Source: Candidatus Hydrothermarchaeales archaeon
Lineage (GTDB): Archaea; Hydrothermarchaeota; Hydrothermarchaeia; Hydrothermarchaeales; JAZGAD01
Direction: 5' to 3'
Assembly (NCBI GenBank): GCA_036444275.1
Contig: JAZGAD010000060.1
Coordinates: 1-29,530 of the forward strand
DNA: 29,530 bases
Position 1 is the first letter of the stretch. Each line of letters begins with the position of its first letter. The notes under the pieces were generated by a model. It had not been told where the DNA came from and searched no databases. It worked only from the letters and a program-made list of their open reading frames with translations. A program made the position numbers and the translations under genes. Of the stretch, positions 1 to 26,358 are shown piece by piece.

Positions 1-1080
1 TTCGAGGACATTGGTGCCCAGACCGTAGATGATCTACAGCAGAACGATGCCGAGTTCATGTTCGTGAAGGATTTGATTGTCTTTGATCACTGGAGGGAAG
101 AGGTCCTTTTAGTGTCGAATATACTCCTCCAAAACAGTGGAAATTTGCAGGAGGAATTAGGCAATGCCATGGAAAAGATCAGGGGGCTAGAGGCTCTGGT
201 AAAGGAATCAAAGCCGAGAAGTCCTAGATACGATGGAGGCACTATCGAGATTAAGAGCAACTTCACTAGAGAAACCTTTGAGGAAGTGGTGCGGAAAACC
301 AAGGAATATATCTATGCCGGTGATATCCTTCAGGGAGTGCTCTCCCAGAGGTTTGCATGCGATACAAAGGCTGACCCCTTCGACATATACCTCGCCCTTA
401 AGGAGATAAATCCCTCTCCATACATGTACTTCCTTGAATTCGGCGAGCTGAAGATAATAGGCTCCAGCCCAGAGATCCTGGTCAGAGTGGATAGAGGTAA
501 AGCAATAGTCCGCCCAATAGCGGGTACCAGACCCAGGGGTAATGATGTGGTAGAAGATGAGTCCCTCGCCAGGGAGATGATGAATGACCCGAAGGAGCGG
601 GCAGAGCACGTCATGCTCGTTGACCTCGGTAGGAATGATGTGGGGAAGGTATCTAGGTTCGGAACAGTAAATGTAAATGAGTTCATGGCTATTGAGAAAT
701 ACTCCCATGTGCAGCACATAGTGAGCAACGTGGAGGGAGAGCTACGTGACGATATGGATGCCTTCGATGTCTTAGAGGCTAGTTTTCCAGCTGGTACAGT
801 GAGCGGTGCCCCCAAGGTCAGGGCGATGCAGATAATAGAGGAGCTTGAGCCTCATCGTAGAGGTATATACGCCGGTGCAGTAGGCTATTTCTGTTTCAAC
901 CGGGACATGGATTTCGCCATAACCATACGCACGATAGTCATGCAAGGTGCGAAGGCATATGTTCAGGCTGGCGCTGGGATAGTAGCCGATTCAGATCCTG
1001 CGAGAGAATATCAGGAGACCGTGAACAAGGGCAAAGGTATGCTTAAGGCGATAGAGCTGGCGGGAGGGCAAGAGAGATGA
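1..1080 (+). CDS. trpE: Anthranilate synthase component I (5'-truncated by the window edge)
   Basis: Frame is open from base 1 (FEDIGAQ...). Motifs NPSPYMY, GSSPE, PIAGTRPRG, KERAEHVMLVDLGRND, PAGTVSGAPK, QAGAGIVADS. Adjacent to trpG/D/F. Confidence 0.95.
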   Translation, partial: FEDIGAQTVDDLQQNDAEFMFVKDLIVFDHWREEVLLVSNILLQNSGNLQEELGNAMEKIRGLEALVKESKPRSPRYDGGTIEIKSNFTRETFEEVVRKTKEYIYAGDILQGVLSQRFACDTKADPFDIYLALKEINPSPYMYFLEFGELKIIGSSPEILVRVDRGKAIVRPIAGTRPRGNDVVEDESLAREMMNDPKERAEHVMLVDLGRNDVGKVSRFGTVNVNEFMAIEKYSHVQHIVSNVEGELRDDMDAFDVLEASFPAGTVSGAPKVRAMQIIEELEPHRRGIYAGAVGYFCFNRDMDFAITIRTIVMQGAKAYVQAGAGIVADSDPAREYQETVNKGKGMLKAIELAGGQER

Positions 1081-1649
1081 GCGTTCTCATTATAGACAAT
1101 ATCGATTCATTCGTTTACAACTTGTACCAGTATGTCGGCGAGTTGAGGGAAGATGTCGTGGTGAAGAGAAATCATATTTCCGTAGATGAGGTAGAAGAGA
1201 TCAACCCAGACAAGATCATTCTAAGCCCTGGCCCAGGAATTCCGGAGAGAGCTGGGAATAGTATAGCGATAATAAAAAGGTTCTCAAGTGAGATCCCCAT
1301 CTTGGGAGTATGCTTGGGGCATCAAGCGATAGGCGCAGCCTTTGGTGCCAAAGTTGGGCGAGCAAAGAATTTGATGCATGGCAAGACAAGCGAAATAGAG
1401 CACGATGGCAGAAGCATTTATCGTGATGTAAGCAACCCACTGACTGCTACGCGCTACCATTCCCTTGCAATTGAGGACGAGGGCTTTCCCAGGGAGCTGG
1501 AGGTAACTTCTAGGAGCAAGGGCGATGACATCATCATGGGTGTGCGCCATAAGAAGTACGCGGTGGAAGGCATACAGTTCCACCCAGAATCTATTTTAAC
1601 CAGTGAAGGGAAGCATATTATGAGAAATTTCCTCGAGCTAGAGAGGTGA
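1077..1649 (+). CDS. trpG: Anthranilate synthase component II (glutamine amidotransferase)
   Basis: IDNIDSFVYNL, SPGPG, GVCLGHQ, RYHSL, QFHPES. ATGA overlap with trpE. Confidence 0.95.
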   Translation: MSVLIIDNIDSFVYNLYQYVGELREDVVVKRNHISVDEVEEINPDKIILSPGPGIPERAGNSIAIIKRFSSEIPILGVCLGHQAIGAAFGAKVGRAKNLMHGKTSEIEHDGRSIYRDVSNPLTATRYHSLAIEDEGFPRELEVTSRSKGDDIIMGVRHKKYAVEGIQFHPESILTSEGKHIMRNFLELER

Positions 1650-1653
1650 TGAG

Positions 1654-2682
1654 ATGAAGGAGTTCATAAACAAGGTAGTGGAGGGACAGGATTTAAGTGA
1701 GACTGAAGCTCAGGAAGCAATGAAGGCTATGATGTCTGGGGATGCGACCCAAGCACAGATGGGCGCCTTTCTCACAGCACTGCGGATGAAGGGCGAAACC
1801 ATAGGGGAGGTATCTGCCTTTGCAAAAGTCATGAGAGAGTTTGCATCTTCTATTCACCCTAAAGTAAAGGAAACCCTTGTGGATACATGCGGCACAGGCG
1901 GCGACAAGATAAAGACCTTCAACATCAGCACCCTAGCTGCCTTCGTTGTCGCTGGAGCAGGTGTACCGATAGCCAAACATGGTAATCGCTCGGTTACATC
2001 CAAGTCCGGGAGCGCCGATGTGCTTGAGGCTCTCGGTCTAAAGCTCGACGTAACCCCAGAGGAAGTGGAGAGGAGTATAGAAGATATAGGTATAGGATTC
2101 ATGTTTGCGCCTACGTTTCACAAGGCAATGAAGTACGCTATAGGCCCCAGGAAAGAGGTTGGTATAAGGACTGTTTTTAACATACTCGGTCCTCTTACGA
2201 ATCCTGCCAGCGCAAAGGCACAGATATTAGGGGTGTACGATCCAGGCCTAACAGAAAAGCTTGCGAGTGTGCTCGCCAATCTAGGTGTGGAACGCGCTAT
2301 GGTGGTGCATGGATTGGAGGGCATAGATGAGATATCCACTATGAGCAAGACACAGATATCCGAGTTGAAAGACTCTGAAGTGATAAACTATACAATTAAA
2401 CCAGAGGACCTGGGCTTTAAGCGTGCTTCCACTACGGACCTAGCTGGATGGGATATTGCATATAACGCCAAGGTAACAATGGATGTATTGAAGGACAAGG
2501 AGAAAGGCCCAAAGAGGGACATAGTTGTCCTCAACGCTGCAGCTGGAATATATGTTGGGGGCAAAGCTGAAACACTTGCGGAATGCATCGAGATAGCTAA
2601 TGTCTCCATAGACTCTGGAGAGGCATTCGGAAAGCTACAGGCACTGATCGAGAGTTCTGGTGGGGTTCTACAGCCTCCTTGA
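1654..2682 (+). CDS. trpD: Anthranilate phosphoribosyltransferase
   Basis: DTCGTGGD, FNIST, KHGNRSVTSKSGSADVLEALG, RTVFNILGPLTNP, GIDE. Confidence 0.97.
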   Translation: MKEFINKVVEGQDLSETEAQEAMKAMMSGDATQAQMGAFLTALRMKGETIGEVSAFAKVMREFASSIHPKVKETLVDTCGTGGDKIKTFNISTLAAFVVAGAGVPIAKHGNRSVTSKSGSADVLEALGLKLDVTPEEVERSIEDIGIGFMFAPTFHKAMKYAIGPRKEVGIRTVFNILGPLTNPASAKAQILGVYDPGLTEKLASVLANLGVERAMVVHGLEGIDEISTMSKTQISELKDSEVINYTIKPEDLGFKRASTTDLAGWDIAYNAKVTMDVLKDKEKGPKRDIVVLNAAAGIYVGGKAETLAECIEIANVSIDSGEAFGKLQALIESSGGVLQPP

Positions 2683-2690
2683 GGATTGAT

Positions 2691-3332
2691 ATGGCAAGGG
2701 TGAAGATCTGCGGCGTAACGAGCATAAAGGATGCCTTAATGTGCGCTGAGTTGGGGGCTGACGCTGTAGGCACCATAGTCGAGGTCCCGGTGGATACCCC
2801 AAGGAAGATCTCTACATCCAAAGCTAGTGAGATCGTAGCTTCTCTACCACTATTCGTGGACAGCGTCGCCGTCGTTATGCCTAAGAGTGTGGAAGAGGCT
2901 ATAGGCTTTTTCAGGGAGATAGAACCTACGGCACTCCAGCTTCATAGAAAAGAGAGCCCGGAATTCGTTAGAAAGCTCAAAGAATCCATCTCCTGCCGGA
3001 TTATCAAGAGCATTCCGATAAGGGATGAAAGCTCTTTGGAGGATGCCCGAGTATATTCAGAACTCTGCGATGCCATTTTGCTGGATAGTCCTTCGCCCAA
3101 GCTCGGTGGAAGTGGGGAGACACACAACTGGGAGTTATCCAGGGCAATAGTTCGTGAGCTTAAGGTACCGGTGATATTGGCAGGTGGTTTAACCCCTGAG
3201 AACGTTGCTGATGCAGTAGCGTTCGTTAGACCATATGCTGTCGATGTCTCTAGTGGAGTCGAGATAGAAGGAGAAAAGGGAAAGAAGGATTACACCAAGG
3301 TCAAGGAATTCATAGAGCGAGCCAGGGGGTAG
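2691..3332 (+). CDS. trpF: Phosphoribosylanthranilate isomerase
   Basis: VKICGVT, GGSGETHNW, LAGGLTPENV, VDVSSGVE. ATG 2691 follows a GAGG (alternative TTG start at 2679). Confidence 0.95.
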   Translation: MARVKICGVTSIKDALMCAELGADAVGTIVEVPVDTPRKISTSKASEIVASLPLFVDSVAVVMPKSVEEAIGFFREIEPTALQLHRKESPEFVRKLKESISCRIIKSIPIRDESSLEDARVYSELCDAILLDSPSPKLGGSGETHNWELSRAIVRELKVPVILAGGLTPENVADAVAFVRPYAVDVSSGVEIEGEKGKKDYTKVKEFIERARG

Positions 3333-15620: not shown

Positions 15621-15700
15621 TCAGAATTAAGACAGCACTCCAACAGCTACTCTGGCAACACTAGACAAGTTTATTTACGTGGTGTATACAAGCTTTGGAT

Positions 15701-16465
15701 ATGAACATAGAGGAGACCCTCAAGAATAGCTTTAAGCTAAGCCTCTATGAAGTTAGGGTATACCTTGCGCTCCTCAGGGGAAGTATGGCTCCCAAGGAGG
15801 CTGCGACAGCATCAAAAGTGCCCTTATCAAGGGTTTATGATACGCTAAAGAGTCTTGAATCAAAGGGCTTCGTGGGGTATAACAATGATAAGTATGAGGC
15901 AGTTTCCCCCGAGATTGCACTGGATGGGAGAATTGCGCAGTTTGAAGCCGAATTTGAGGTAAGTGCGAAAGAACGAAAGGGGAATAAAAAACTGGTTTTA
16001 GAACACCTCAACTCTATGTACTTAAGAGAGTCACCGGCGCAGGAGTTGGTGACGCTGAAAGGCATCTATAGTATTACAAACAAATTCTTAGAGATATTAA
16101 ACGAATCAGAAGAGGTATATATAACCATAAGAAAGGCTTTAGAAGCAAAGGATCTGCTGAAAAAATACTTGGTGAACTCTCAAGCGAATAACAGAAAAAT
16201 CAGGATTCTGATCCCTGGCGGAGCAGAGATTAATGATACAGACAGGGAATTTGCCTCTAGGATAGGACTGAAGATGCGCTATTACGATAACCTCCTCTTT
16301 GACTTGATGGTAGCAGATGGCAGAGATGTCATTATAGGCGTGCCTGACCCTACGAGCAACGAGCTCTACCACTCCATTGCGATATGGATACGGAATCCCT
16401 CGTTTGCCAAAGGGATTCAGGAGTCCCTTGAAAATGTCTGGGAGAATGAAAGCTATACAGGATGA
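15701..16465 (+). CDS. TrmB family transcriptional regulator
   Basis: LSLYEVRVYLALL, VPLSRVYDTLKSLESKGFV (TrmB wHTH), coiled region, C-terminal PLD-like effector domain. TTTATTTA at 15670-15677. Confidence 0.88.
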   Translation: MNIEETLKNSFKLSLYEVRVYLALLRGSMAPKEAATASKVPLSRVYDTLKSLESKGFVGYNNDKYEAVSPEIALDGRIAQFEAEFEVSAKERKGNKKLVLEHLNSMYLRESPAQELVTLKGIYSITNKFLEILNESEEVYITIRKALEAKDLLKKYLVNSQANNRKIRILIPGGAEINDTDREFASRIGLKMRYYDNLLFDLMVADGRDVIIGVPDPTSNELYHSIAIWIRNPSFAKGIQESLENVWENESYTG

Positions 16466-16541: not shown

Positions 16542-17627
16542 TTGAGGCTTAATGTACCTACCAACTGGGATAATGCACTCATAGAAAACATAAGTTCTTT
16601 TCCAGTAGAGTGCATCTATGGGAAACTAGATGAAGATATAATCGGAGGGGGAAGGCCGACCTCTGCTCTTCCAAAGGTCACGAAAGAACATGCAGAAGAG
16701 CACATCAAGTTAGCGCATGCCAATGGTATTGTTTTTAACTATCTCTTGAATTCAGCCTGCTTGGGCAACCTGGAATACTCCGATGAATATAATCAGAAAA
16801 TATTGGAGCATCTGACCTGGATAGAGGGTATAGGTGCGGATTACGTCACTGTTTCTATACCATATCTCATTGAGGTAGTAAAAAAGAGATTCCCAAGCCT
16901 AAAGGTTGTGGCCTCTGTATTCTCCCACATAGAGTCTATACAGCAAGCGCAATTTTATCAGTCCCTAGGTGCAGATGAAATCGTTGTGGTGCAAAGCCAG
17001 AACAGAAACTTTGATTATCTAAGCAAGCTCTCGAAGGTAATAAAAAACTTACAAGTTATTGTCAACAACTGTTGTCTGCTGGGATGCCCATACCGCCGCT
17101 ATCACGCGAACATCAACTCACATGCATCACAGTCTCAACGCCAAGTTAAATCCATTCCAGTTGACTATCCTGTTTCAAGCTGCTGGAGGGCGAGACTCCA
17201 AGATCCTAGTGAGATCATCAAATCCCCATGGATTAGACCCGAGGATTTACACGTCTACGAAGAAATAGGCATCGACAAGTTCAAGCTATCAGGAAGGACA
17301 AAGACCACTGCGTGGATAACCACTGCTGTTAAGGCCTATGCTGAGAGGAGATATGAGGGGAATTTATTCGACATCCTAAGCCTGCCTCATGGAAAGGGGT
17401 CTATCAGCAGGCCAAAGAATATGCCCTTGGTGGATGTTGAGGTTGATAATAACATGCTAAACGATTTCCTGCCGTTCTTTATGCATCAGGATTGCAGCTC
17501 TACAGTATGCAGTCAATGCGGTTACTGCCCCGGCATAGCTGAGAAGGCAGTCAAGGTCAACCCTGAAGAGGTAAAACTAGCTATCGAGAGATACAACGAT
17601 GCATTGGAAGGCCTCATTAGGAGGTAG
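16542..17627 (+). CDS. U32 family Fe-S protein (putative O2-independent hydroxylase), subfamily distinct from UbiU/V
   Basis: FNYLLNSAC, NRN, NNCCLLGCPYR.YH, SSC, WIRPEDL..Y, FKLSGR (U32 KxxGR), C-terminal CxxxxCxxCxxC. Confidence 0.8.
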   Translation: MRLNVPTNWDNALIENISSFPVECIYGKLDEDIIGGGRPTSALPKVTKEHAEEHIKLAHANGIVFNYLLNSACLGNLEYSDEYNQKILEHLTWIEGIGADYVTVSIPYLIEVVKKRFPSLKVVASVFSHIESIQQAQFYQSLGADEIVVVQSQNRNFDYLSKLSKVIKNLQVIVNNCCLLGCPYRRYHANINSHASQSQRQVKSIPVDYPVSSCWRARLQDPSEIIKSPWIRPEDLHVYEEIGIDKFKLSGRTKTTAWITTAVKAYAERRYEGNLFDILSLPHGKGSISRPKNMPLVDVEVDNNMLNDFLPFFMHQDCSSTVCSQCGYCPGIAEKAVKVNPEEVKLAIERYNDALEGLIRR

Positions 17628-17631
17628 AATA

Positions 17632-18435
17632 TTGAGGCTTGGTTTTTTTACTAATGCATTCAGATTTTTTCCTCGGGATTATGCCCTTAAAAGCATAAGC
17701 GATCTCGGCTATGAGGGGATCAATCTCTGGGCAAAGGGGGATCATGTAACGCCATTTGATGGAGAGAAAAAGTGGCTGGCCATAAAGGAGGAAATAGAGT
17801 CATATGGCCTAGAGCTATATGCTGTTAGCGCACACCTCGACTTTGTCTCTCCAGATGCTGAGAAGAGGGAGAGGGAATACAAGAAATTCATGGGTGTCTT
17901 AGACCTTGCCCACACCCTTGGGATAGACCAGGTTCAAACAGCTTCAGGAGGCCTATATGAAGACTTCTCTTTCGAGAAACAAGGCGAGTACTTTGTCTCT
18001 ATGATGAATGAATTCGGCAAGGTAGCTGAAGATAAGGGGATCATCATAGGGCTTGAGCCAGAGCCTGAGAAGTGGATGAGCACGCCTGAGCAGACAATCG
18101 ATTTAATTAAGACTCTGCGCTATCCGGTGTTCAAGGCTGTCGTAGATCTGGGGCATGCCTTTGGGGTAAATGAAACACCCAAGAGTTATATCCACAAGTT
18201 CAAGGACTACCTGCTCAATGTCCATGTTGACGATGTAAACAAAGATGATTTCCCACACAGGCACCTTATACCTGGAGATGGGGACGTGGACTTTGTAGAT
18301 GTCTTTAAGACGCTGCGAGAAGTGGGATACAAGGATTGGCTTACCGTCGAGTTGAACAAACACAACGAGGACCCTGATACTGCAGCTCGTCTTGCAATGG
18401 AGTATATGAGTAGGTTTGAAGAACACTGGAAGTGA
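17632..18435 (+). CDS. Sugar-phosphate isomerase/epimerase (xylose isomerase-like / AP2 TIM barrel)
   Basis: GLEPEP, DLGH, HVDD, H.HLIPGDGDVDF, LTVEL metal motifs. TTG 17632 follows GGAGGT. Confidence 0.85.
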   Translation: MRLGFFTNAFRFFPRDYALKSISDLGYEGINLWAKGDHVTPFDGEKKWLAIKEEIESYGLELYAVSAHLDFVSPDAEKREREYKKFMGVLDLAHTLGIDQVQTASGGLYEDFSFEKQGEYFVSMMNEFGKVAEDKGIIIGLEPEPEKWMSTPEQTIDLIKTLRYPVFKAVVDLGHAFGVNETPKSYIHKFKDYLLNVHVDDVNKDDFPHRHLIPGDGDVDFVDVFKTLREVGYKDWLTVELNKHNEDPDTAARLAMEYMSRFEEHWK

Positions 18436-20057
18436 AGGGTATATTCACACTACTAGGTGGAGAGATGGTTGATCAGAAGAAACCAAGGAGTATCTATCTA
18501 AGAGCTGCATGGTATGGTGAAACCCCTGATTTTAATCCATATAACGAGATTTCAAGGAACTTAAAACAAGCTGTTTCCATGGGGAAGATGTCGCATCCAG
18601 ACAATCTGGAATCCCTTATGAAATTACTATATGAAACCAACCGTAGATATGGTGTCTTAACGCAGGAAGTAAAAGAGAAGATTGACTCCATAGCAAGTGG
18701 TGTAGCGATAACAGCCCACCAGCCTATTTATCTCGGCGGCCCGTCTTTAATCTTGAATAAGATGGCGCTTGCTTCGGAGGTCTCTAAGATCTCAGAGCTA
18801 TCTCCTTTATTCTTCCTCGCCGACTTTGATGGGGTTCACAAAGAGATTACTCATACACACCTCCCCAGTTTAAGTCCAGCAGGCATTGCACTCTTACTTC
18901 CAAGGGATATCATAAAGGATTATGAAGGCTGTCCAGTCTATACTCTGCCTTTACCTAGTGAGGCACATTTAACGGATACATTGGAAAGAATCAGACAGAA
19001 CTATGGAGAGACAATCAAAAAGGCATTTTCATCTCCAGCTGAGAAGAGGTTGTATATCGAACGCTTGGAAGAAGCTTTGACCGTGGTTAGGACACAATAT
19101 TATGCTTCTAAAAACTTCAGCGAATGGACCATGCGTATCCTAGCTAATATCGCGAACATTACTGGTGAACTCAACATCATGTTTCTTGAATCGTCTTCTA
19201 GGGAATTCAGGAGACTCCTCCAAGGAGGTTTCGAGTATCTAATGGGGGATAAAAACCTTGATACCTTTATTAAAACCATAAACAGGGTCCACGATCAGCT
19301 TAAGGAAAACAATATCACTCCAACTCTGAGAAAGCGGGACAAGAAATATGTTCCGTTCTTTTATGAGTGCCAGAGCCAGGGATGTAACCGGAGGAGGGTC
19401 TTACTGGAGCGTGAGAATACCATATTAAAGGGAAGATGCAAGAAATGTGGTACTGCATATGGGTTTTCAAAGAATGAACTCTCAGATATAGTGGAGGATA
19501 TAAGCCCCCGTATCGACTCAAGACTGCTCGTTTCCTCCTTTGCTATCCCCCTGTCTGTGCAGATCACAGGTGGTGGCGAGACCGACTACATGGCGCAGGT
19601 GCTTCCTGCTATGCGTTCCATAAAGGTTGATCCCCCCACCACCTTGCTCTATAGTAGGATATACTATAACAATGTAATAAGAGCCCATCTAGAGGTAAAA
19701 ATAAAGCAGTTACTTGAAAAATATGGGTTGCCAGAGTCAGAGATATATACTTGCTTAGGGAGGTACATGAATAATGCAACAAGGGAGGAGGCTATGATTC
19801 CCCTAACCCTAGCTATAGAACAGGAATACAGAACACTTAAAAAACTGGAGGAGATCGCTAAAGAACGCGACGTATCCCTATACATCTCATCTGCCCATGG
19901 AAGCTATTCCAAAGAGAAGGTAGGGCAGGAGATATCATGGAATTGGATTGATCTAGCGGTATCCTCAGGCGTATCCGATCTCATAAACATATATACACGG
20001 TTTTATAATGCAGAGACAATACCGGGTGCATGCTTCTTTGCAAACACGTGCAGGTGA
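18432..20057 (+). CDS. bshC: BshC-like (bacillithiol cysteine-adding enzyme family) ligase
   Basis: TAHQPIYLGGP...NK (cf. BshC GQQ.G..GP...K), PLFFLADFD..HKEI (cf. PVFW...DHD..EI), ISPR...R, GGGETDYMAQV (cf. GGPGE.AY.AQ). About 540 aa and clustered with bshB1. Confidence 0.65.
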   Translation: MKGIFTLLGGEMVDQKKPRSIYLRAAWYGETPDFNPYNEISRNLKQAVSMGKMSHPDNLESLMKLLYETNRRYGVLTQEVKEKIDSIASGVAITAHQPIYLGGPSLILNKMALASEVSKISELSPLFFLADFDGVHKEITHTHLPSLSPAGIALLLPRDIIKDYEGCPVYTLPLPSEAHLTDTLERIRQNYGETIKKAFSSPAEKRLYIERLEEALTVVRTQYYASKNFSEWTMRILANIANITGELNIMFLESSSREFRRLLQGGFEYLMGDKNLDTFIKTINRVHDQLKENNITPTLRKRDKKYVPFFYECQSQGCNRRRVLLERENTILKGRCKKCGTAYGFSKNELSDIVEDISPRIDSRLLVSSFAIPLSVQITGGGETDYMAQVLPAMRSIKVDPPTTLLYSRIYYNNVIRAHLEVKIKQLLEKYGLPESEIYTCLGRYMNNATREEAMIPLTLAIEQEYRTLKKLEEIAKERDVSLYISSAHGSYSKEKVGQEISWNWIDLAVSSGVSDLINIYTRFYNAETIPGACFFANTCR

Positions 20058-20061
20058 TGAG

Positions 20062-20907
20062 ATGAATACGCTCTTGGTTATTCCTGTTTACCAGGAAGAA
20101 GAGAATATCTCGAAAGTCCTCTATGATATTGAAGAATCGAGAGCGAATGGCATACCTTTTGATATACTAATCATCGATGATGGATCAACAGATTCTACTC
20201 CAGTTATACTTGATAGGCTCCAGAAGGACATTACATTTGATATCCTCATGCACAGAGAGAATGCTGGATATGGAAATGCCCTAAAATCAGGGTTCGATTC
20301 AGCGATTCAAGGGGGCTACGATACTATTATCACAATGGATGCTGATGAACAGCATGATCCAGATTTCCTGAAATCTTTTTTTGCAACAAAAGGCGCGGAT
20401 ATCCTCAGCGGCTCTAGGTATCAAGACATAGTCTTAGGGACAAATAGCATGCCCCCTGACCGTTTTTTGATTAACATGATAATGACGACTATAGTTAATC
20501 ACTTGACTGCCTATGATCTAACAGATTCCTTCTGCGGTATGAAGGCCTATAACGTGGATGCCTTAAAGAAATTAGATCTTACGGGGCTTGCAGAAGGATA
20601 TGAAATGCCTCTCCAGCTTCTTTTTCAAGCTCGCTTTAATAACCTCTCCATCATGGAGATACCGGTACCCTTAATATACAAGACACATGAGGTACTGGCA
20701 CCAGCTCCAAAACGCTTGGAGGCATACATTAACACAGTAAGAGATGAGGTTGTAAGAAGTAAGAAACAGCATATAGTAGAACTATTAGAGAAGGCACTTG
20801 AAAGAAGGGACGGCTTGGTGAATATCGCAGTAGAAACACATGCAATGCTAGAGGACATAATAGGTGCTCAACTGCCGTGTCCTCGATACCTTAGAGGTGG
20901 ACTATGA
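20062..20907 (+). CDS. Glycosyltransferase family 2 (DPM1/ArnC-like)
   Basis: IPVYQEEENI, IDDGSTDST, HRENAGYG.A...GF, TMDADEQH, GSRY, TDSFCGMKAY, EIPV. ATG 20062 follows GGTGA. Confidence 0.9.
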   Translation: MNTLLVIPVYQEEENISKVLYDIEESRANGIPFDILIIDDGSTDSTPVILDRLQKDITFDILMHRENAGYGNALKSGFDSAIQGGYDTIITMDADEQHDPDFLKSFFATKGADILSGSRYQDIVLGTNSMPPDRFLINMIMTTIVNHLTAYDLTDSFCGMKAYNVDALKKLDLTGLAEGYEMPLQLLFQARFNNLSIMEIPVPLIYKTHEVLAPAPKRLEAYINTVRDEVVRSKKQHIVELLEKALERRDGLVNIAVETHAMLEDIIGAQLPCPRYLRGGL

Positions 20908-21590
20908 AATTGGATGTCTTGGTTGTGGGAGCGCATCCAGATGATGCAGAACTAGGGGCTGGGGGTACGATTGCAAAGCTGGAAAAACAAGGACGGAGGG
21001 TAGGAATCCTTGACCTATCTGATGGTGAACCGACGCCTCATGGAACGCCTGAGATAAGGAGGAAGGAAGCAGAAGAAGCAGCAAAAATCTTAGGGGTTGA
21101 TGTCAGGGAGATACTTGGATTAGAGAATAGGAAGATCATCGATAGCATTGAGGCAAGAAAAGAGATAGCAAATATCATAAGGAAGTATAAGCCTGAGGTG
21201 ATTATCACACATCCAAAGGATGAGAGCCACCCAGATCATATTGTAGCCTACAACCTGGTATTTGCATCCAGTTTCTATGCCAGATTAACGAAGTGGCCGC
21301 AGGCAAGGAAACCATGGGAGGTTAAAAGGATATTCCACTTCCCGGGGGGGCACCAAAGGGTAAACAGGAAGGTCTCGTTTATAGTTGATATCAGTGATTT
21401 CATCGAACAGAAGATAAAGGCACTAGAATGCTATAAATCGCAGCTCATAGAGAACGTGAAGAACCGTGAGCTTCTGGAGATAATCCCGGCTGCGGCAAAG
21501 TATTATGGTTCAATGATAGGCAGGAGCTATGGAGAAGCGTTCATCTGCGAGGAAGAGATAGGGGTAGAAGACCTACTGGATATCATATAG
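20904..21590 (+). CDS. bshB1: N-acetylglucosaminyl deacetylase BshB1 (PIG-L family)
   Basis: GAHPDDAELG.GGTIAK, ILDLSDGEPTPHGT.E.R..EA..AA.ILGV, HPDH, VDISDF..K..AL.CYKSQ, YGEAF. Confidence 0.85.
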   Translation: MKLDVLVVGAHPDDAELGAGGTIAKLEKQGRRVGILDLSDGEPTPHGTPEIRRKEAEEAAKILGVDVREILGLENRKIIDSIEARKEIANIIRKYKPEVIITHPKDESHPDHIVAYNLVFASSFYARLTKWPQARKPWEVKRIFHFPGGHQRVNRKVSFIVDISDFIEQKIKALECYKSQLIENVKNRELLEIIPAAAKYYGSMIGRSYGEAFICEEEIGVEDLLDII

Positions 21591-21599
21591 GGAATTACC

Positions 21600-22619
21600 A
21601 TGGTCGAGTTAGTTGTTCCCACTCCGAATCTAGAGGTATTAAAAGCTGCATTGGATAGTGGGGCAGATTCGGTATATGTGCCGATAACAAAGAAAGTATC
21701 GATACGCTTTGGATCCAGTTTTTTCTCACTTGGTGAGATGGAGAAGGCAGTAGGATATGCCCATGATCTAGGAAAAAAAGCCTATGTGGTTGTCAATGCC
21801 CATGTAAGGGATAGGGGTCTTGAAGATTTTCAGAGGACTGTAGAGTCTATCTATAGTGCAGAAGCAGACGGCGTAGTGGTGAGCAGCTTCGGTGTTATAG
21901 ACTGGATAAACAAGCATTATCCAATAAAGATCATCGCCTCAGGTGTTGCATCTGCTATCTCCCCAGAGGATGCATTGTTCTTAAAATCCCTCGGTGTTAC
22001 GAGGGTGATAATCCCTCGCCTTCGATCCCTGCAGTCGATAAAAGAATACAAGGAGAAAACCAACATGGAGGTTGAAGTATACGTAAGTGGCTTCATCTGC
22101 AGTGCATGGGATGGAAAACGCTGTTTCCTGCCTTCTCTGCTCTATGATGTGGGCACAGAATCTGGTTTGTGCATCCCGAAGGATGTTAAGCGTGTTTCAG
22201 GACTTTATTTAGCTGGTGATCATCCAATACGTTCTGTTAGGCTTGGAACAGATAGCTTTTCTACCAGGCACGGAAGCGTAGGCATAGAGGGCCAGGGTTT
22301 AATCACCCCATGTATCGGCGATTATATAGTAAAATGCGGTGATGATTCCATTAAAGCACATCTCATGGAATTCGAAGTACAGTGTGACCTAGCTGCGATT
22401 CCTTATCTGATCAAAAACAACGTGGACAGCCTGAAGGTTGTCGCAGAGGTAAAATCCCTGGATTATATTAAGAAGATGGTTGAGGTTTGGAGGAAGGCTA
22501 TAGATGCATACGAGGCTTCTCCTGAGTCATGGAAAGTGGAAGAAGGGTGGATAAGGGCGCTGCAGGCCGCATATAACCTGCCGATTAGGCTTGATTCATA
22601 TTTCAAGGGGGGATGCTGA
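21600..22619 (+). CDS. ubiU: U32 family Fe-S protein, UbiU-like
   Basis: ELVVP..NL..LKAALDSGADSVY, GVTRVIIPR, EVEVYV.G. Cys spacing C-X7-C-X15-C-X46-C, with the last Cys in TPCIGDY (cf. E. coli UbiU C-X6-C-X16-C-X38-C, PTLCKGRY). Confidence 0.72.
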   Translation: MVELVVPTPNLEVLKAALDSGADSVYVPITKKVSIRFGSSFFSLGEMEKAVGYAHDLGKKAYVVVNAHVRDRGLEDFQRTVESIYSAEADGVVVSSFGVIDWINKHYPIKIIASGVASAISPEDALFLKSLGVTRVIIPRLRSLQSIKEYKEKTNMEVEVYVSGFICSAWDGKRCFLPSLLYDVGTESGLCIPKDVKRVSGLYLAGDHPIRSVRLGTDSFSTRHGSVGIEGQGLITPCIGDYIVKCGDDSIKAHLMEFEVQCDLAAIPYLIKNNVDSLKVVAEVKSLDYIKKMVEVWRKAIDAYEASPESWKVEEGWIRALQAAYNLPIRLDSYFKGGC

Positions 22620-23485
22620 TGGAGATAACAGTAACCGCATATACTTATCCAGAAGTTGAAAAATGGGTTAAAAGTGGAGCAGACAGCATAAGGTTTGGTG
22701 AGCCTCACTGCTACCTAAAAGCACTGCGAGACTGGGATGAAAAAAAAATTAGAAAGGCATGTGCACTAATAGAATCGTCGGGTAAAAAAGCCCAGTTGCA
22801 GTTGCTGGTTGCACCATCTTCAAGGGAGGAAATCGAGTATACGAGAAACCTATGCAATCTTGCCTCATCTAATGGTATCGACCTAGTGCTAGGCTCCCTA
22901 GGCATGCTTAAGATAACTAATAGCTGTGTGGCTGGTAGCTATATCAAGGCTTATAACCGCCTCGACCTAGAGGTTCTGAGTAGACATGGAGTTAGGATAG
23001 TATCCATATCACCTGACCTGGCAAAGGAGGAGATAGAGGGGTTGATAAGAAATGCACCCTCAATGTTGTTTGAGTACCAGATTCATGGTCCAGTAAGCCT
23101 CATGACGAGTTGGAAGTGCTTCCTAAGGCAGATGTGCCCTGCTGAAGGGAAAGGGAACTGCAGCTATGTGTGCACAGGTTATATACGCATGCACAGCCTT
23201 AGTGGAGAAGAACTCTTTGATGTAAATGGCAACTCGCTTGCAACTTCTAGGGATCTATGCATGCTTCCTCATCTAGGGGAGCTTTTTGATATGGGGGTCT
23301 CTATCGGACTGATAGAAACGAGGAATAGGGAATACGATAATTGCATTATAGATGTCTACAAAGAAGCAGTTCAAGACCCTGGTAATTTTGAATACCTCAA
23401 GAGACTGCGTGGAAATTTCTTGGACGGTTGGTACCATGGGAAAGAGGGGAATAGCTTTTGCTTAGGGAGGAAAGTAGACGAATAG
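22613..23485 (+). CDS. ubiV: U32 family Fe-S protein, UbiV-like
   Basis: N-terminal FGEPHC (cf. UbiV LGEAVC), HG.V.L..S..C-X13-C-X3-C, F.VNG, C-terminal DGWYHG (cf. NGYW). Overlaps the UbiU-like gene. Confidence 0.75.
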   Translation: MLMEITVTAYTYPEVEKWVKSGADSIRFGEPHCYLKALRDWDEKKIRKACALIESSGKKAQLQLLVAPSSREEIEYTRNLCNLASSNGIDLVLGSLGMLKITNSCVAGSYIKAYNRLDLEVLSRHGVRIVSISPDLAKEEIEGLIRNAPSMLFEYQIHGPVSLMTSWKCFLRQMCPAEGKGNCSYVCTGYIRMHSLSGEELFDVNGNSLATSRDLCMLPHLGELFDMGVSIGLIETRNREYDNCIIDVYKEAVQDPGNFEYLKRLRGNFLDGWYHGKEGNSFCLGRKVDE

Positions 23486-24073: not shown

Positions 24074-24931
24074 TTAAGTGTATAGATCTATAAAGGTAAA
24101 GAGGAATACCAAGGAGCTTATGGCAACATTTACACTGAAGGTCTTCCTCCAGACATCTGTAAACTCTGATAGTATATGATATTGATAAATCTGAAGTACC
24201 CCCATAATGAGGATACCTGATAGGTAAGCTGTACCTAATTCTAGGATATAGTACAATGAGAGGAATAAGAGCAAGGAAGCGACAGCAAATCCCTTAGCTA
24301 TCCAGAAACTTTTGTCTGGACCAAGCCAGGCAGGGATCGAATGTAGTTTCTGAGTACGATAAAACTCCATGTCGCGTATATCCTGGATGATATCAAAACC
24401 TGTCATCCAAAATGCAACTGCTAGGGATAGCACAATGGCTGGAAATTCTATTCTGCCGCTCACAGCTATCCATCCTCCAAATGGGGAAAGACCCAAGATT
24501 ACACCTAACAAGATGTGCAACCCCGAAGTAAAGCGCTTGGTATAGGGGTAAATGCATATGAGTAGGATTACGAAGGGGGATAGCTTGAAGCATAACGGAT
24601 TTAATTTGTATGCAGCGAATGCTAGCAGAGCAAAGGATATTAAAGCAAAAACAAGTACTTCGAGAGGGTCGAGTACCCCCGTAGGAATGAACCGATCTTT
24701 TGTCCTTAGATTTAGCGCATCTATCTCACGGTCAATAAACCTATTTATCGCCATTCCTCCGCTTCTAGCACTTGCCAATGCCAGAAGTATGAACATAACC
24801 TGGTGTTTTGTTGGTAATCCCCCTGCGGCCAATACTGCACCCATTAGAGCAAAGGGAAGCACCAGTAGAATACGCTCGAATTTGGTCATCTCAAAGAGCG
24901 TCTTGATCTTCACATGTTGTATTCTTTCCAT
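24074..24931 (-). CDS. ubiA: UbiA family aromatic polyprenyltransferase (MqnP / 4-HB prenyltransferase-like)
   Basis: LPFA, ARS..MA.NRFIDREIDA.N.RT..R.IP.G, YPYTKRFT, GGWIAV, W..GFDII, multiple TM helices. Confidence 0.88.
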   Translation of the reverse strand: MERIQHVKIKTLFEMTKFERILLVLPFALMGAVLAAGGLPTKHQVMFILLALASARSGGMAINRFIDREIDALNLRTKDRFIPTGVLDPLEVLVFALISFALLAFAAYKLNPLCFKLSPFVILLICIYPYTKRFTSGLHILLGVILGLSPFGGWIAVSGRIEFPAIVLSLAVAFWMTGFDIIQDIRDMEFYRTQKLHSIPAWLGPDKSFWIAKGFAVASLLLFLSLYYILELGTAYLSGILIMGVLQIYQYHILSEFTDVWRKTFSVNVAISSLVFLFTFIDLYT

Positions 24932-26358
24932 CTCCTATCCACTAGATCGACAACATCCGGGCTCATATTTAATGCCTCTGGCCATTCTCTTTCATGTCCC
25001 TCGTCCCTTCCCTTCATAGTTGCATCTATACCTATCTTTGATCCTAGATTCGGCAGTGGAGCCGCGTGATCAAGGGTATCAACAGGCGCTCTGTCTATCA
25101 CAATAATATCCCTTTTGGGGTCTATCCTGGTTGAAACAGCCCACGTTACCTCACCTAAGTCCTGGATGTTTACATCTTCATCCACAACAACTATGCACTT
25201 GGTAGAGGAAAGCTGCCCCAAGCCCCATAATGCAAACATAACCTTTTTTGCCTGCCCAGGATACCTCTTCTTAATGGATACTATGCAGAGGTTGTGGACA
25301 GCGCTCTCTATTGGCAGATTTATATCTCTTATCTCTGGAAGCTGGAACCTTATTAGAGGGAGGAACATCCTTTCTATCGCTTTTCCCATGTATGAATCTT
25401 CCTTAGGGGGTCTACCAGTCAGCGTTGCAGGATATATCGGCTTCTCCCTGTGAGTTATACACGTTACATGGAAGACCGGAAAGAGGTCTGGTAGGGAATA
25501 ATAACCGGTGTGGTCTCCGAAAGGACCTTCACTTCTCCGTTCATTTGGATCAATATAACCCTCTAAAACGATTTCGGCATTGGCAGGCACCTCTAGATCG
25601 ACGGTCTCGCACTTCACTAACTCTACAGGTTTCTTCCTCAAAATGCCTGCGAATACCATCTCATCAAAACCGTCTGGCAGTGGAGCCGGTGCAGATAGCA
25701 TGGTTGCAGGGTCACCGCCTAATGCTACTGCAACCTCCAAGGGCCTTCCCAGTTCCTCAGCCTTACGATAGTGCGTCGCCCCATGCTTTTGAATATGCCA
25801 GTGCATACCAGTGGTTTTTGCATCGAATACCTGCATGCGGTACATCCCAACGTTTCTCTCTCCAGTCTCTGGATCCTTAGTGAAGACTAGAGGGAGTGTT
25901 ATGAACCGCCCACCATCCTTAGGCCAGAACTTTGGTATTGGAAATTTACTAAGGTCTACCTCATCACCTTTAAGAATAATATCCTTGCAGGGCCCACTCT
26001 TCACAACCTTTGGAAAAATAGACAAGACATCCCTTAGTTTAGAGACACCCTTTATCTTACCCACTAAACCGGATGGTATCTCTGGTTTAATCAACTCGAC
26101 AATGCCTTTGCCTATGTTCTCTAAATCTTCTACGTCTAATGCTACTTTTATTCGTTGTATTGAGCCAAAGATGTTCGCTAGGATAGGTATATCAAAACCT
26201 TTTACATTTTCAAAGAGCACTGCCGGTCCATTACTTTTAACCAACCTATCCAAGATCTCTGTAACCTCAAGTTCTGGATTAACCTCTGTTTTGATCCTCC
26301 GTAACTCTCCCTTATTCTCAAGGAATTTAATAAAATCCCTTAAGTCACGATATGCCAC
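24910..26358 (-). CDS. ubiD: UbiD family prFMN-dependent (de)carboxylase (MqnL / menaquinone decarboxylase-like)
   Basis: DLRDFI..LE..GEL, WPKDGGRFITLP, RNVGMYRMQ, GMHW..QK.G, EGPFGDHTGYYS, KRYPGQAKKVM, GSKIGIDAT. GTG start with GGAGG. Confidence 0.93.
   Translation of the reverse strand: MAYRDLRDFIKFLENKGELRRIKTEVNPELEVTEILDRLVKSNGPAVLFENVKGFDIPILANIFGSIQRIKVALDVEDLENIGKGIVELIKPEIPSGLVGKIKGVSKLRDVLSIFPKVVKSGPCKDIILKGDEVDLSKFPIPKFWPKDGGRFITLPLVFTKDPETGERNVGMYRMQVFDAKTTGMHWHIQKHGATHYRKAEELGRPLEVAVALGGDPATMLSAPAPLPDGFDEMVFAGILRKKPVELVKCETVDLEVPANAEIVLEGYIDPNERRSEGPFGDHTGYYSLPDLFPVFHVTCITHREKPIYPATLTGRPPKEDSYMGKAIERMFLPLIRFQLPEIRDINLPIESAVHNLCIVSIKKRYPGQAKKVMFALWGLGQLSSTKCIVVVDEDVNIQDLGEVTWAVSTRIDPKRDIIVIDRAPVDTLDHAAPLPNLGSKIGIDATMKGRDEGHEREWPEALNMSPDVVDLVDRRWKEYNM

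Follow-up and report, generated by a model that had tools for sequence, protein, structure and literature searches.

Three adjoining genes of a Candidatus Hydrothermarchaeales archaeon may encode a version of the bacillithiol pathway in which a different enzyme has taken over the first step. The genes lie on contig JAZGAD010000060.1 (positions 1 to 29,530; "the window" hereafter denotes this whole stretch of 29,530 nt) and specify a BshC-like ligase, a family-2 glycosyltransferase (GT2) and a BshB1 deacetylase. The full reading, in which the GT2 stands in for the family-4 glycosyltransferase (GT4) BshA and the product is a soluble cysteinyl-glucosamine (Cys-GlcN) glycoside and a new low-molecular-weight (LMW) thiol, is given an even chance. 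It builds on direct results: the identities and folds of the gene products, the tight coupling of the genes, the failure to detect a bshA, and the repeated pairing of GT2 with BshC-fold proteins elsewhere, sometimes joined by BshB1. The three open reading frames (ORFs) are as follows.

18432-20057, + strand: BshC-like ORF, 541 aa counted from GTG; likelier start ATG 18465 (530 aa)
20008-20907, + strand: GT2 ORF, 299 aa, opening at ATG 20008; likelier start ATG 20062
20904-21590, + strand: BshB1, 228 aa, PIG-L/LmbE zinc deacetylase

An earlier reading of this DNA, made from the letters and their ORFs (the sequence-only reading), had proposed that the three genes are translationally coupled, and the layout bears this out. 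The ORF list of the window places all three on the + strand where that reading had them. The BshC-like stop codon (TGA, 20055-20057) lies 4 nt from the likelier GT2 start, the GT2 stop and BshB1 start overlap as ATGA, and a GGTGGAG/AGGTGA motif resembling a ribosome-binding site precedes each likelier start (ATG 18465 for the BshC-like gene, ATG 20062 for the GT2 gene). The contig, here C60, is one of 61 in an archaeal genome bin that totals 1.49 Mb and is 81% complete and 0.11% contaminated.

The absence of BshA from the module extends to the genome as assembled. No gene in this 81%-complete genome exceeds the cut-off of the BshA model TIGR03999; the best score is 204.5 bits against 273.7. 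Six GT4 genes match the model, none at cut-off. The best of them, on contig C27, matches only model positions 82-373 and adjoins cofD and a gene for a polymerase-like membrane protein. A GT4 of this type (140-212 bits, mostly matching that part of the model) recurs in 29 of the 40 relatives searched, and BshC was found in none of the 29; its spread through BshC-less relatives marks it as a lineage-typical housekeeping GT4 rather than a BshA. The C27 gene was considered as a hidden BshA and rejected on its score, its unmatched N-terminal acceptor domain and the commonness of its type where BshC is lacking. BshA above the cut-off is found in 0/40 relatives, and the BshC-like gene in none of the 60 sampled.

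The deacetylase is the most conventional member of the set. It scores 209.4 bits against TIGR04001, above the equivalog cut-off of 182.5, and 107.1 bits against the PIG-L Pfam model, and its top PDB matches are TT1542, B. subtilis BshB1 (6p2t) and 2ixd. Two zinc-site motifs align with TT1542, AHPDD close to the N-terminus and HPDH at about residue 110; the accessible text of one paper gives the zinc ligands of BshB as His/Asp/His (PMC5790435). In a BshB tree that left out canonical bacterial BshB1 sequences, the window BshB groups with six GT2-associated BshBs and is split (100/100) from ten archaeal BshA-associated BshBs.

The ligase is a member of the BshC family at some distance from its characterized representatives. 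It scores 50 bits against PF10079 (Rossmann-like BshC; cut-off 27) and 55.4 bits against the equivalog model TIGR03998, far under the cut-off of 265.8, which places it in the family but not among its demonstrated equivalogs. A structure model built on 19 relatives (predicted TM-score (pTM) 0.71) has a confident core and a C-terminal third of low confidence. Its top structural match is B. subtilis BshC, 4wbd (Foldseek E 5.9e-15, TM 0.53; Z 29.7, root-mean-square deviation (rmsd) 3.4 Å, 328 residues aligned), followed by class I lysyl-tRNA synthetase (LysRS; Z 20.2) and then other class I synthetases (Z at most 10.3). By this model the 541-aa protein has the BshC fold, as the sequence-only reading had supposed. 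Residues C302, C307, C325 and C328 of the 530-aa form are invariant in the window protein and 18 archaeal relatives and lie in a beta-rich insert; they look like a zinc ribbon. A complex prediction of the BshC-like protein with the GT2 (score 0.00, mark 0.32) speaks neither for nor against binding.

In a set of 5.8 billion proteins, nothing but its own two copies exceeds 36% identity to the ligase. A clade at about 35% identity comes next, spread across Bathyarchaeia and Asgard archaea, and 77 columns are invariant across the window ligase and this BshA-linked clade, including motif regions common with B. subtilis BshC. Clade neighbourhoods were found at 116 genome loci, of which 80 were kept for counts. 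A GT4 gene lies near bshC in 58 of the 80 (33/43 where at least 3 kb is available on both sides) and a PIG-L gene in 56, and the two GT4s that were scored are true BshA (420.6 and 366.5 bits). None of the 80 loci contains the window's GT2 or any of its U32, TIM-barrel, UbiA and UbiD neighbours, described below. Since the clade normally sits in a canonical bshA/bshB/bshC cluster, the gene content of the window is read as an exchange and not as the default. In loci of the Bathyarchaeia type, an Amidohydro_2 gene (144 bits), which encodes another kind of metal-dependent TIM-barrel enzyme than that of the window, directly precedes bshC in 33 of the 80 (for example L013, 6822-7775); these clusters carry it between bshB and bshC, with bshA convergent downstream. 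Four archaeal BshC-clade loci (L013, L024, L030 and L047) come from bins labelled bacterial (Krumholzibacteriaceae, Desulfaltia, Patescibacteria), and their Bathyarchaeia-type gene order makes mis-binning likely.

The GT2 scores 83.4 bits against PF00535. Its best NCBIfam matches are all polyprenyl-phosphate sugar synthases and all far under cut-off (PpgS 59.6 against 370; ArnC 42.5 against 529), and the PDB entries closest to it in sequence are PfDPMS (5mlz) and ArnC, in keeping with the DPM1/ArnC-like character first ascribed to it. Its DADEQH stretch aligns with the PfDPMS donor motif 89-DADLQH-94, so the DxD-Q-H pattern of the GT-A fold is present. In the accessible text on PfDPMS, the phosphate of dolichyl phosphate (Dol-P) is bound by Arg117, Arg131, Ser135 and Lys178, the last of which contacts the phosphoester oxygen (PMC5526996). 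In a manual mapping through the alignment, the counterparts of Arg117 and Arg131 are R119 and R134, which are invariant in the GT2 family; Lys178 corresponds to Glu181 in the window protein, at a position that is not conserved, and Ser135 to Asn138. The retention of both arginines together with the loss of the lysine suggests an acceptor that is probably anionic and a site unlike that of a true DPMS. Asn138 was considered as a clade-specific change and rejected, as many generic GT2s also have Asn there.

Neither the GT2 (maximum 19-residue hydropathy 1.07) nor BshB, the BshC-like protein or the protein X introduced below has a hydrophobic span; the most hydrophobic part of the window GT2 is the stretch equivalent to interface helix 1. 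No neighbour of the flippase or GT-C type recurs in 80 GT2 loci. The lack of spans and of such partners favours a soluble acceptor, which we consider evenly poised between true and false, over a polyprenyl phosphate, which we consider unlikely. Some true polyprenyl-phosphate GT2s, such as Ppm1-type enzymes, are also without transmembrane helices. Family-2 glycosyltransferases of this kind are expected to invert and so to give a beta-glycoside, whereas BshA, a GT4, gives an alpha-glycoside.

Other genomes place this GT2 type beside putative ligases. Beyond the two copies described below, the nearest GT2s are bacterial proteins of about 240 aa with 42-49% identity. A scan of metagenome contigs with an alignment of 31 GT2s gave 596 pattern matches, of which 547 were confirmed and the best 80 kept. 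A BshB-like gene, 38-45% identical to the window BshB, follows the GT2 on the same strand in 7 of these best 80 loci; two of them were scored and, at 205.6 and 191.3 bits, clear the BshB1 cut-off. In 53 of the best 80 the GT2 is followed by a gene for X, a soluble protein of some 520-570 aa that carries no annotation (for example L122, 3231-4901). Downstream sequence of 900 nt or more is available in 54 loci; 47 of them carry X as defined, three have strong overlapping matches and four have none. A natural fusion, P0274, joins a GT2 domain (residues 18-177) to X (252-764).

X has no Pfam or NCBIfam match (in Pfam, none up to E = 10), yet by structure it resembles BshC. Its model (mean predicted local distance difference test (pLDDT) 90.7, pTM 0.87) has 4wbd as top match (Foldseek E 2.6e-13; Z 24.5, rmsd 5.3 Å, 457/540 residues, end to end), ahead of class I LysRS (Z 19.5) and the remaining matches (at most 10.1), and by this model X has the full BshC fold. 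Strands occupy the same region as the cysteine-bearing insert of the window ligase, without those cysteines. Comparison of X with BshC by sequence gives hhalign probabilities of 4% and then 5.7%, with the same motif region aligned, and cross-searches with hidden Markov models give at most 6.5 bits; the X-side profile (A4) finds nothing relevant among PDB sequences. Atlas feature scores of X to PF10079 clusters (0.87 and 0.82) serve as leads only. The family is large, at 3,290 representative clusters (50% identity) at E <= 0.001 and 2,493 at E <= 1e-10. Its sources include Atribacterota, and the nearest clusters in the atlas are mostly from Planctomycetota. Having no Pfam or NCBIfam model, the family is a candidate for a new family definition.

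A quick GT2 tree of 51 rows comprises the window protein, its copy, the fusion, 27 metagenome rows (20 of the 80 chosen for a full-length X and the 7 with BshB), 11 rows taken from relatives and 10 Asgard rows. In this tree the window GT2 falls inside a 36-row clade (Shimodaira-Hasegawa-like approximate likelihood ratio test (SH-aLRT) 95) that also holds all 28 X- or BshB-associated rows and six of the Asgard ones; the other 15 rows, generic archaeal GT2s, are not part of it. A signature of C158, K161, Y163, Y180 and P183 holds in the clade with few exceptions. The window protein has all five residues, and 0/15 generic rows do.

Asgard genomes extend the pattern to whole-genome content. Five that carry BshC without an adjacent bshA, two of them in records titled "chromosome", have no BshA (0/5), and the same four of the five encode both a clade GT2, matched over the whole model at 165-178 bits, and a BshB1-like protein (142-161 bits). 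In five genomes with BshA-linked BshC, the GT2 matches are weaker (91-149 bits) and shorter, stopping at around model position 204. Within 1.5 kb of the clade GT2s of the five Asgard genomes there is no gene for BshB, X or BshC, and the co-occurrence there is at genome level only. The sequence-only reading had a GT2 replacing the GT4. Clade GT2s are paired and once fused with BshC-fold proteins, sometimes in company with a BshB1-like protein, and are complementary to BshA in ten archaeal genomes, which supports that claim. Judged from these sequence associations, the GT2 is not a chance neighbour of the BshC-like gene, and a GT2-based bacillithiol-like route appears to recur, with the window as a hybrid member.

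The transcription unit is wider than the three genes first noted. Seven genes (16542-23485, in the order U32a, TIM barrel, BshC-like, GT2, BshB1, U32b, U32c) are joined by overlaps or by gaps of at most 29 nt. The further features of this region are listed here.

15695-16465, + strand: TrmB-family transcriptional regulator, directly upstream of the operon (PF01978, 52.1 bits)
16542-17627, + strand: U32a, peptidase-U32 family, first operon gene (PF01136, 49.9 bits)
17632-18435, + strand: TIM barrel, xylose-isomerase-like, AP_endonuc_2 (PF01261, 145.1 bits)
21600-22619, + strand: U32b, UbiU-like (PF01136, 122.7 bits; UbiU model 146.4 bits, cut-off 440)
22613-23485, + strand: U32c, UbiV-like, last operon gene, overlapping U32b (PF01136, 54.7 bits; UbiV model 70.7 bits, cut-off 275)
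24074-26358, - strand: UbiA (MqnP-like) and UbiD; UbiD passes the menaquinone decarboxylase cut-off (TIGR03701, 634 against 496 bits)

The U32a stop is followed after 4 nt by the TIM-barrel start, which has GGAGG upstream. The TrmB-family protein, which scores 59.1 bits against the TrmBL2 model, far below its cut-off, is a possible regulator of the operon; a TrmB-family protein of Haloferax is described as a thiol-based oxidative-stress regulator in the accessible text of one report (PMC9426492). Downstream lies a convergent CPBP-UbiA-UbiD set, so that the U32 trio, with one UbiU-like and one UbiV-like member, faces the UbiA/UbiD pair. The U32 genes together with UbiA and UbiD may represent an oxygen-independent set for prenyl-aromatic or quinone hydroxylation in an archaeon. 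U32, UbiA and UbiD occur in 0 of 160 comparison loci (80 BshC-clade and 80 GT2 loci), and the link to them is therefore specific to this genome; U32a and U32b have no conserved link to the bacillithiol-like module elsewhere. A U32b ortholog was not found in 40 relatives, two of which give just partial matches of 34-35%. Near the other end of the window, positions 58-3332 hold an ordinary tryptophan branch with anthranilate synthase components, anthranilate phosphoribosyltransferase and phosphoribosylanthranilate isomerase.

The TIM-barrel gene adjoins the BshC-like gene in both copies of the pair. At the end of the 3,188-nt contig C25 (L008, 72-2166) lies a diverged TIM-BshC-like pair with protein identities of 92% (TIM) and 87% (BshC-like). 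Either the genome has undergone a real duplication here or the bin contains a second population. The ratio of nonsynonymous to synonymous substitution rates between the C60 and C25 copies is 0.06 for the TIM barrel and 0.15 for the BshC-like gene, low values that indicate purifying selection. A GT2 copy (P0024), 87% identical, is on a separate public contig of 2,070 nt. Elsewhere, GT2-X has a PF01261 gene next to it at two loci, L128 (128.9 bits) and L169 (88.1 bits), with a weak match in L183. TIM-barrel orthologs in 9 of 40 relatives have another context, a trio with a UbiE-like methyltransferase and a Gfo/Idh/MocA oxidoreductase; examples are L106 (4500-6851) and L107 (6128-8533, also near UbiA), and the window gene has left this trio.

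In the proposed route, the soluble inverting GT2 would transfer N-acetylglucosamine (GlcNAc) from UDP-GlcNAc onto an anionic small molecule bearing a phosphate or carboxylate, giving a beta-glycoside where BshA gives alpha-GlcNAc-malate. BshB1 would then take off the acetyl group, and the BshC-like ligase would acylate the freed amine, most likely with cysteine. The coupled TIM-barrel enzyme might, speculatively, make or modify the aglycone. We infer the donor, the acceptor, the linkage, the amino acid added and the solubility of the product; this product is most likely a soluble Cys-GlcN glycoside, possibly a lipid-linked one.

Several points weigh against the exchanged-enzyme reading. The combination of a PF10079-type ligase with a clade GT2 was found nowhere but in this genome and a single copy of 87-92% identity, and the window ligase belongs to a clade that usually accompanies BshA, not to X. 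The link between X and BshC rests on fold and not on significant sequence similarity, the GT2 tree is a quick version, and the ten genomes of the profile comparison are kin rather than independent samples. Profile searches of the genome reveal no bacilliredoxin, YpdA or YtxJ equivalog (PF06491 and TIGR04019 have no match, and the best TIGR04018 match is 99.5 bits against a cut-off of 339.9). The BshC reaction has never been reconstituted in vitro, even with B. subtilis BshC, according to the accessible text of PMC5790435, so cysteine addition is proposed by analogy only. BshB1, as an ordinary equivalog, fits ordinary bacillithiol synthesis as well. In that case a canonical bshA may lie in the unassembled 19% of the genome, BshB1 and the BshC-like ligase would serve in their usual roles, and the GT2 would be unrelated or would decorate the product. 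The 81% completeness and the usual partnership of the ligase's closest clade with BshA leave this account a slim chance, as does the dispersal of the bsh genes in Bacillus noted in the accessible text of PMC5790435. However, with BshC in 0/60 relatives and BshA above cut-off in 0/40, the pathway looks acquired, and acquisition of an operon without its first enzyme but with a coupled GT2 would be less economical. The GT2 clade is moreover tied to BshC-fold proteins by adjacency, by fusion and by a distribution complementary to BshA, and the window BshB sides with GT2-associated rather than archaeal BshA-associated BshBs.

Polyprenyl phosphates are the substrates of all the nearest characterized GT2 relatives, a point in favour of a lipid acceptor. 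The GT2 might accordingly make polyprenyl-phosphate-GlcNAc at the membrane face, after which BshB1 would deacetylate it, along the lines of ArnC/ArnD, PpgS or PIG-L, and the BshC-like protein would aminoacylate the lipid-linked glucosamine, towards an envelope glycan or lipid. Although PpgS, Dol-P hexose transferase, ArnC, AglJ and PfDPMS head the list of relatives, the polyprenyl-phosphate models fall far short of their cut-offs, as the PpgS score illustrates. Both Dol-P-phosphate arginines of PfDPMS are invariant in the GT2 family, but Glu replaces Lys178 in the window at a variable position, and the clade has invariant residues of its own. The equivalent of interface helix 1 is the most hydrophobic stretch of the GT2, and the PIG-L family is named after a lipid-linked GlcNAc deacetylase; yet none of the GT2, BshB1, the BshC-like protein and X has a transmembrane segment, and the 80 loci show no recurring flippase or GT-C transferase next to GT2-X. 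On balance lipid linkage is improbable. A further account keeps the same three steps but ends in ligation of an amino acid other than cysteine, so that the product would be a thiol-less aminoacyl-glucosaminide (a compatible solute, cofactor precursor or signal), possibly tied to the U32 genes and UbiA/UbiD. The BshC substrate has never been shown in vitro, in the accessible text of PMC5790435. With its nearest clade the ligase shares only about 35% identity, its score falls well short of the BshC equivalog cut-off, bacillithiol-dependent redox enzymes were not found in the genome, and the operon uniquely has three U32 genes beside a UbiA/UbiD pair. Still, the 77 invariant columns unite the window ligase with its BshA-linked clade and include the motif regions of B. 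subtilis BshC, and the 160 comparison loci are devoid of U32, UbiA and UbiD; we regard a thiol-less product as decidedly unlikely.

The exchanged-enzyme reading can be extended beyond this genome in a proposal that is possible but doubtful. GT2 plus BshC-fold cassettes, with or without BshB1 and including the X family, might make undescribed beta-linked Cys-GlcN thiols that are the missing redox buffers of lineages for which no LMW thiol is predicted (Planctomycetota, Atribacterota and many archaea); in the window, the TIM barrel and perhaps the co-transcribed, hydroxylase-like U32 pair might build a lineage-specific aglycone. The GT2 or its product could also be the partner or substrate missing from BshC reconstitution, given that GT2 and ligase are sometimes fused. 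LMW thiols set the redox chemistry of the cell, yet many microbial lineages have no known or predicted LMW thiol. According to the accessible text of Hiras et al. (2018), these lineages include Planctomycetes, Verrucomicrobia and Spirochaetes (PMC6282198). A recurrent route with a different first enzyme implies another aglycone or linkage and hence a new thiol family. The gene set of GT2, BshB1-type deacetylase and BshC-fold ligase offers a handle for tracing the thiol in cultured organisms that carry these genes. The large X family would be placed in a functional setting, and fusions of GT2 and ligase open a fresh approach to the BshC reaction, which is still unsolved.

A GT2-based bacillithiol variant and GT2-X cassettes figure in no paper found, with subscription-journal papers and supplements outside the search. 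Archaeal BshA and BshC homologs are in print, and bacillithiol has never been detected in archaea, according to the accessible text of PMC7278568; a 2025 survey of RefSeq reports no complete bacillithiol (BSH) pathway in archaea in the portion of its text available (PMC12719100). The window resembles the BshA/BshB1/BshC route of Bacillus, Staphylococcus and Thermus/Deinococcus in carrying a BshB1-grade deacetylase and a BshC-fold ligase in one operon, and in the logic of GlcNAc transfer, deacetylation and amine acylation. It differs in having an inverting DPM1-like GT2 instead of the retaining GT4 BshA, a TIM-barrel gene coupled upstream, a ligase at 55 bits against 265.8 and a genome in which no Brx, YpdA or YtxJ equivalog was found. 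The bshA-bshB-bshC clusters of Bathyarchaeia and Thorarchaeota supply the nearest relatives of the window ligase (about 35%), with the four invariant cysteines in common. They have a true BshA, a divergent BshB (88-99 bits) and often Amidohydro_2, whereas the window has a GT2, a bacterial-type BshB1 and the AP_endonuc_2 TIM barrel.

Mycothiol synthesis by MshA, MshB and MshC also proceeds through GlcNAc transfer, deacetylation and cysteine ligation, and MshB is a PIG-L relative (46.3 bits to the window BshB). MshA, however, is a GT4 whose acceptor is inositol phosphate, and MshC, a paralogue of cysteinyl-tRNA synthetase, does not have the BshC fold; this class I synthetase-like ligase appears among the distant fold matches (Z 8.7-9.8). 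No mycothiol-pathway model reaches its cut-off on the window proteins. ArnC/ArnD and PpgS share with the window a GT-A GT2 resembling DPMS, ArnC and PpgS, followed by N-acyl removal from the transferred amino sugar; the window differs in having no membrane segments, flippase or GT-C partner and in its BshC-type ligase as a third step. ArnD is not a PIG-L enzyme, and further parallel pairs of a glycosyltransferase followed by a deacetylase are HpnI/HpnK in hopanoid glucosamine synthesis and PIG-A/PIG-L in glycosylphosphatidylinositol (GPI) synthesis. The GT2-(BshB1-like)-X cassettes of bacteria, Atribacterota and Planctomycetota among them, share with the window the GT2 clade and its signature, the BshB type and the order of GT2 before BshB. 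Their ligase is X, undetected by Pfam and linked to BshC by fold, whereas that of the window is detectable with PF10079.

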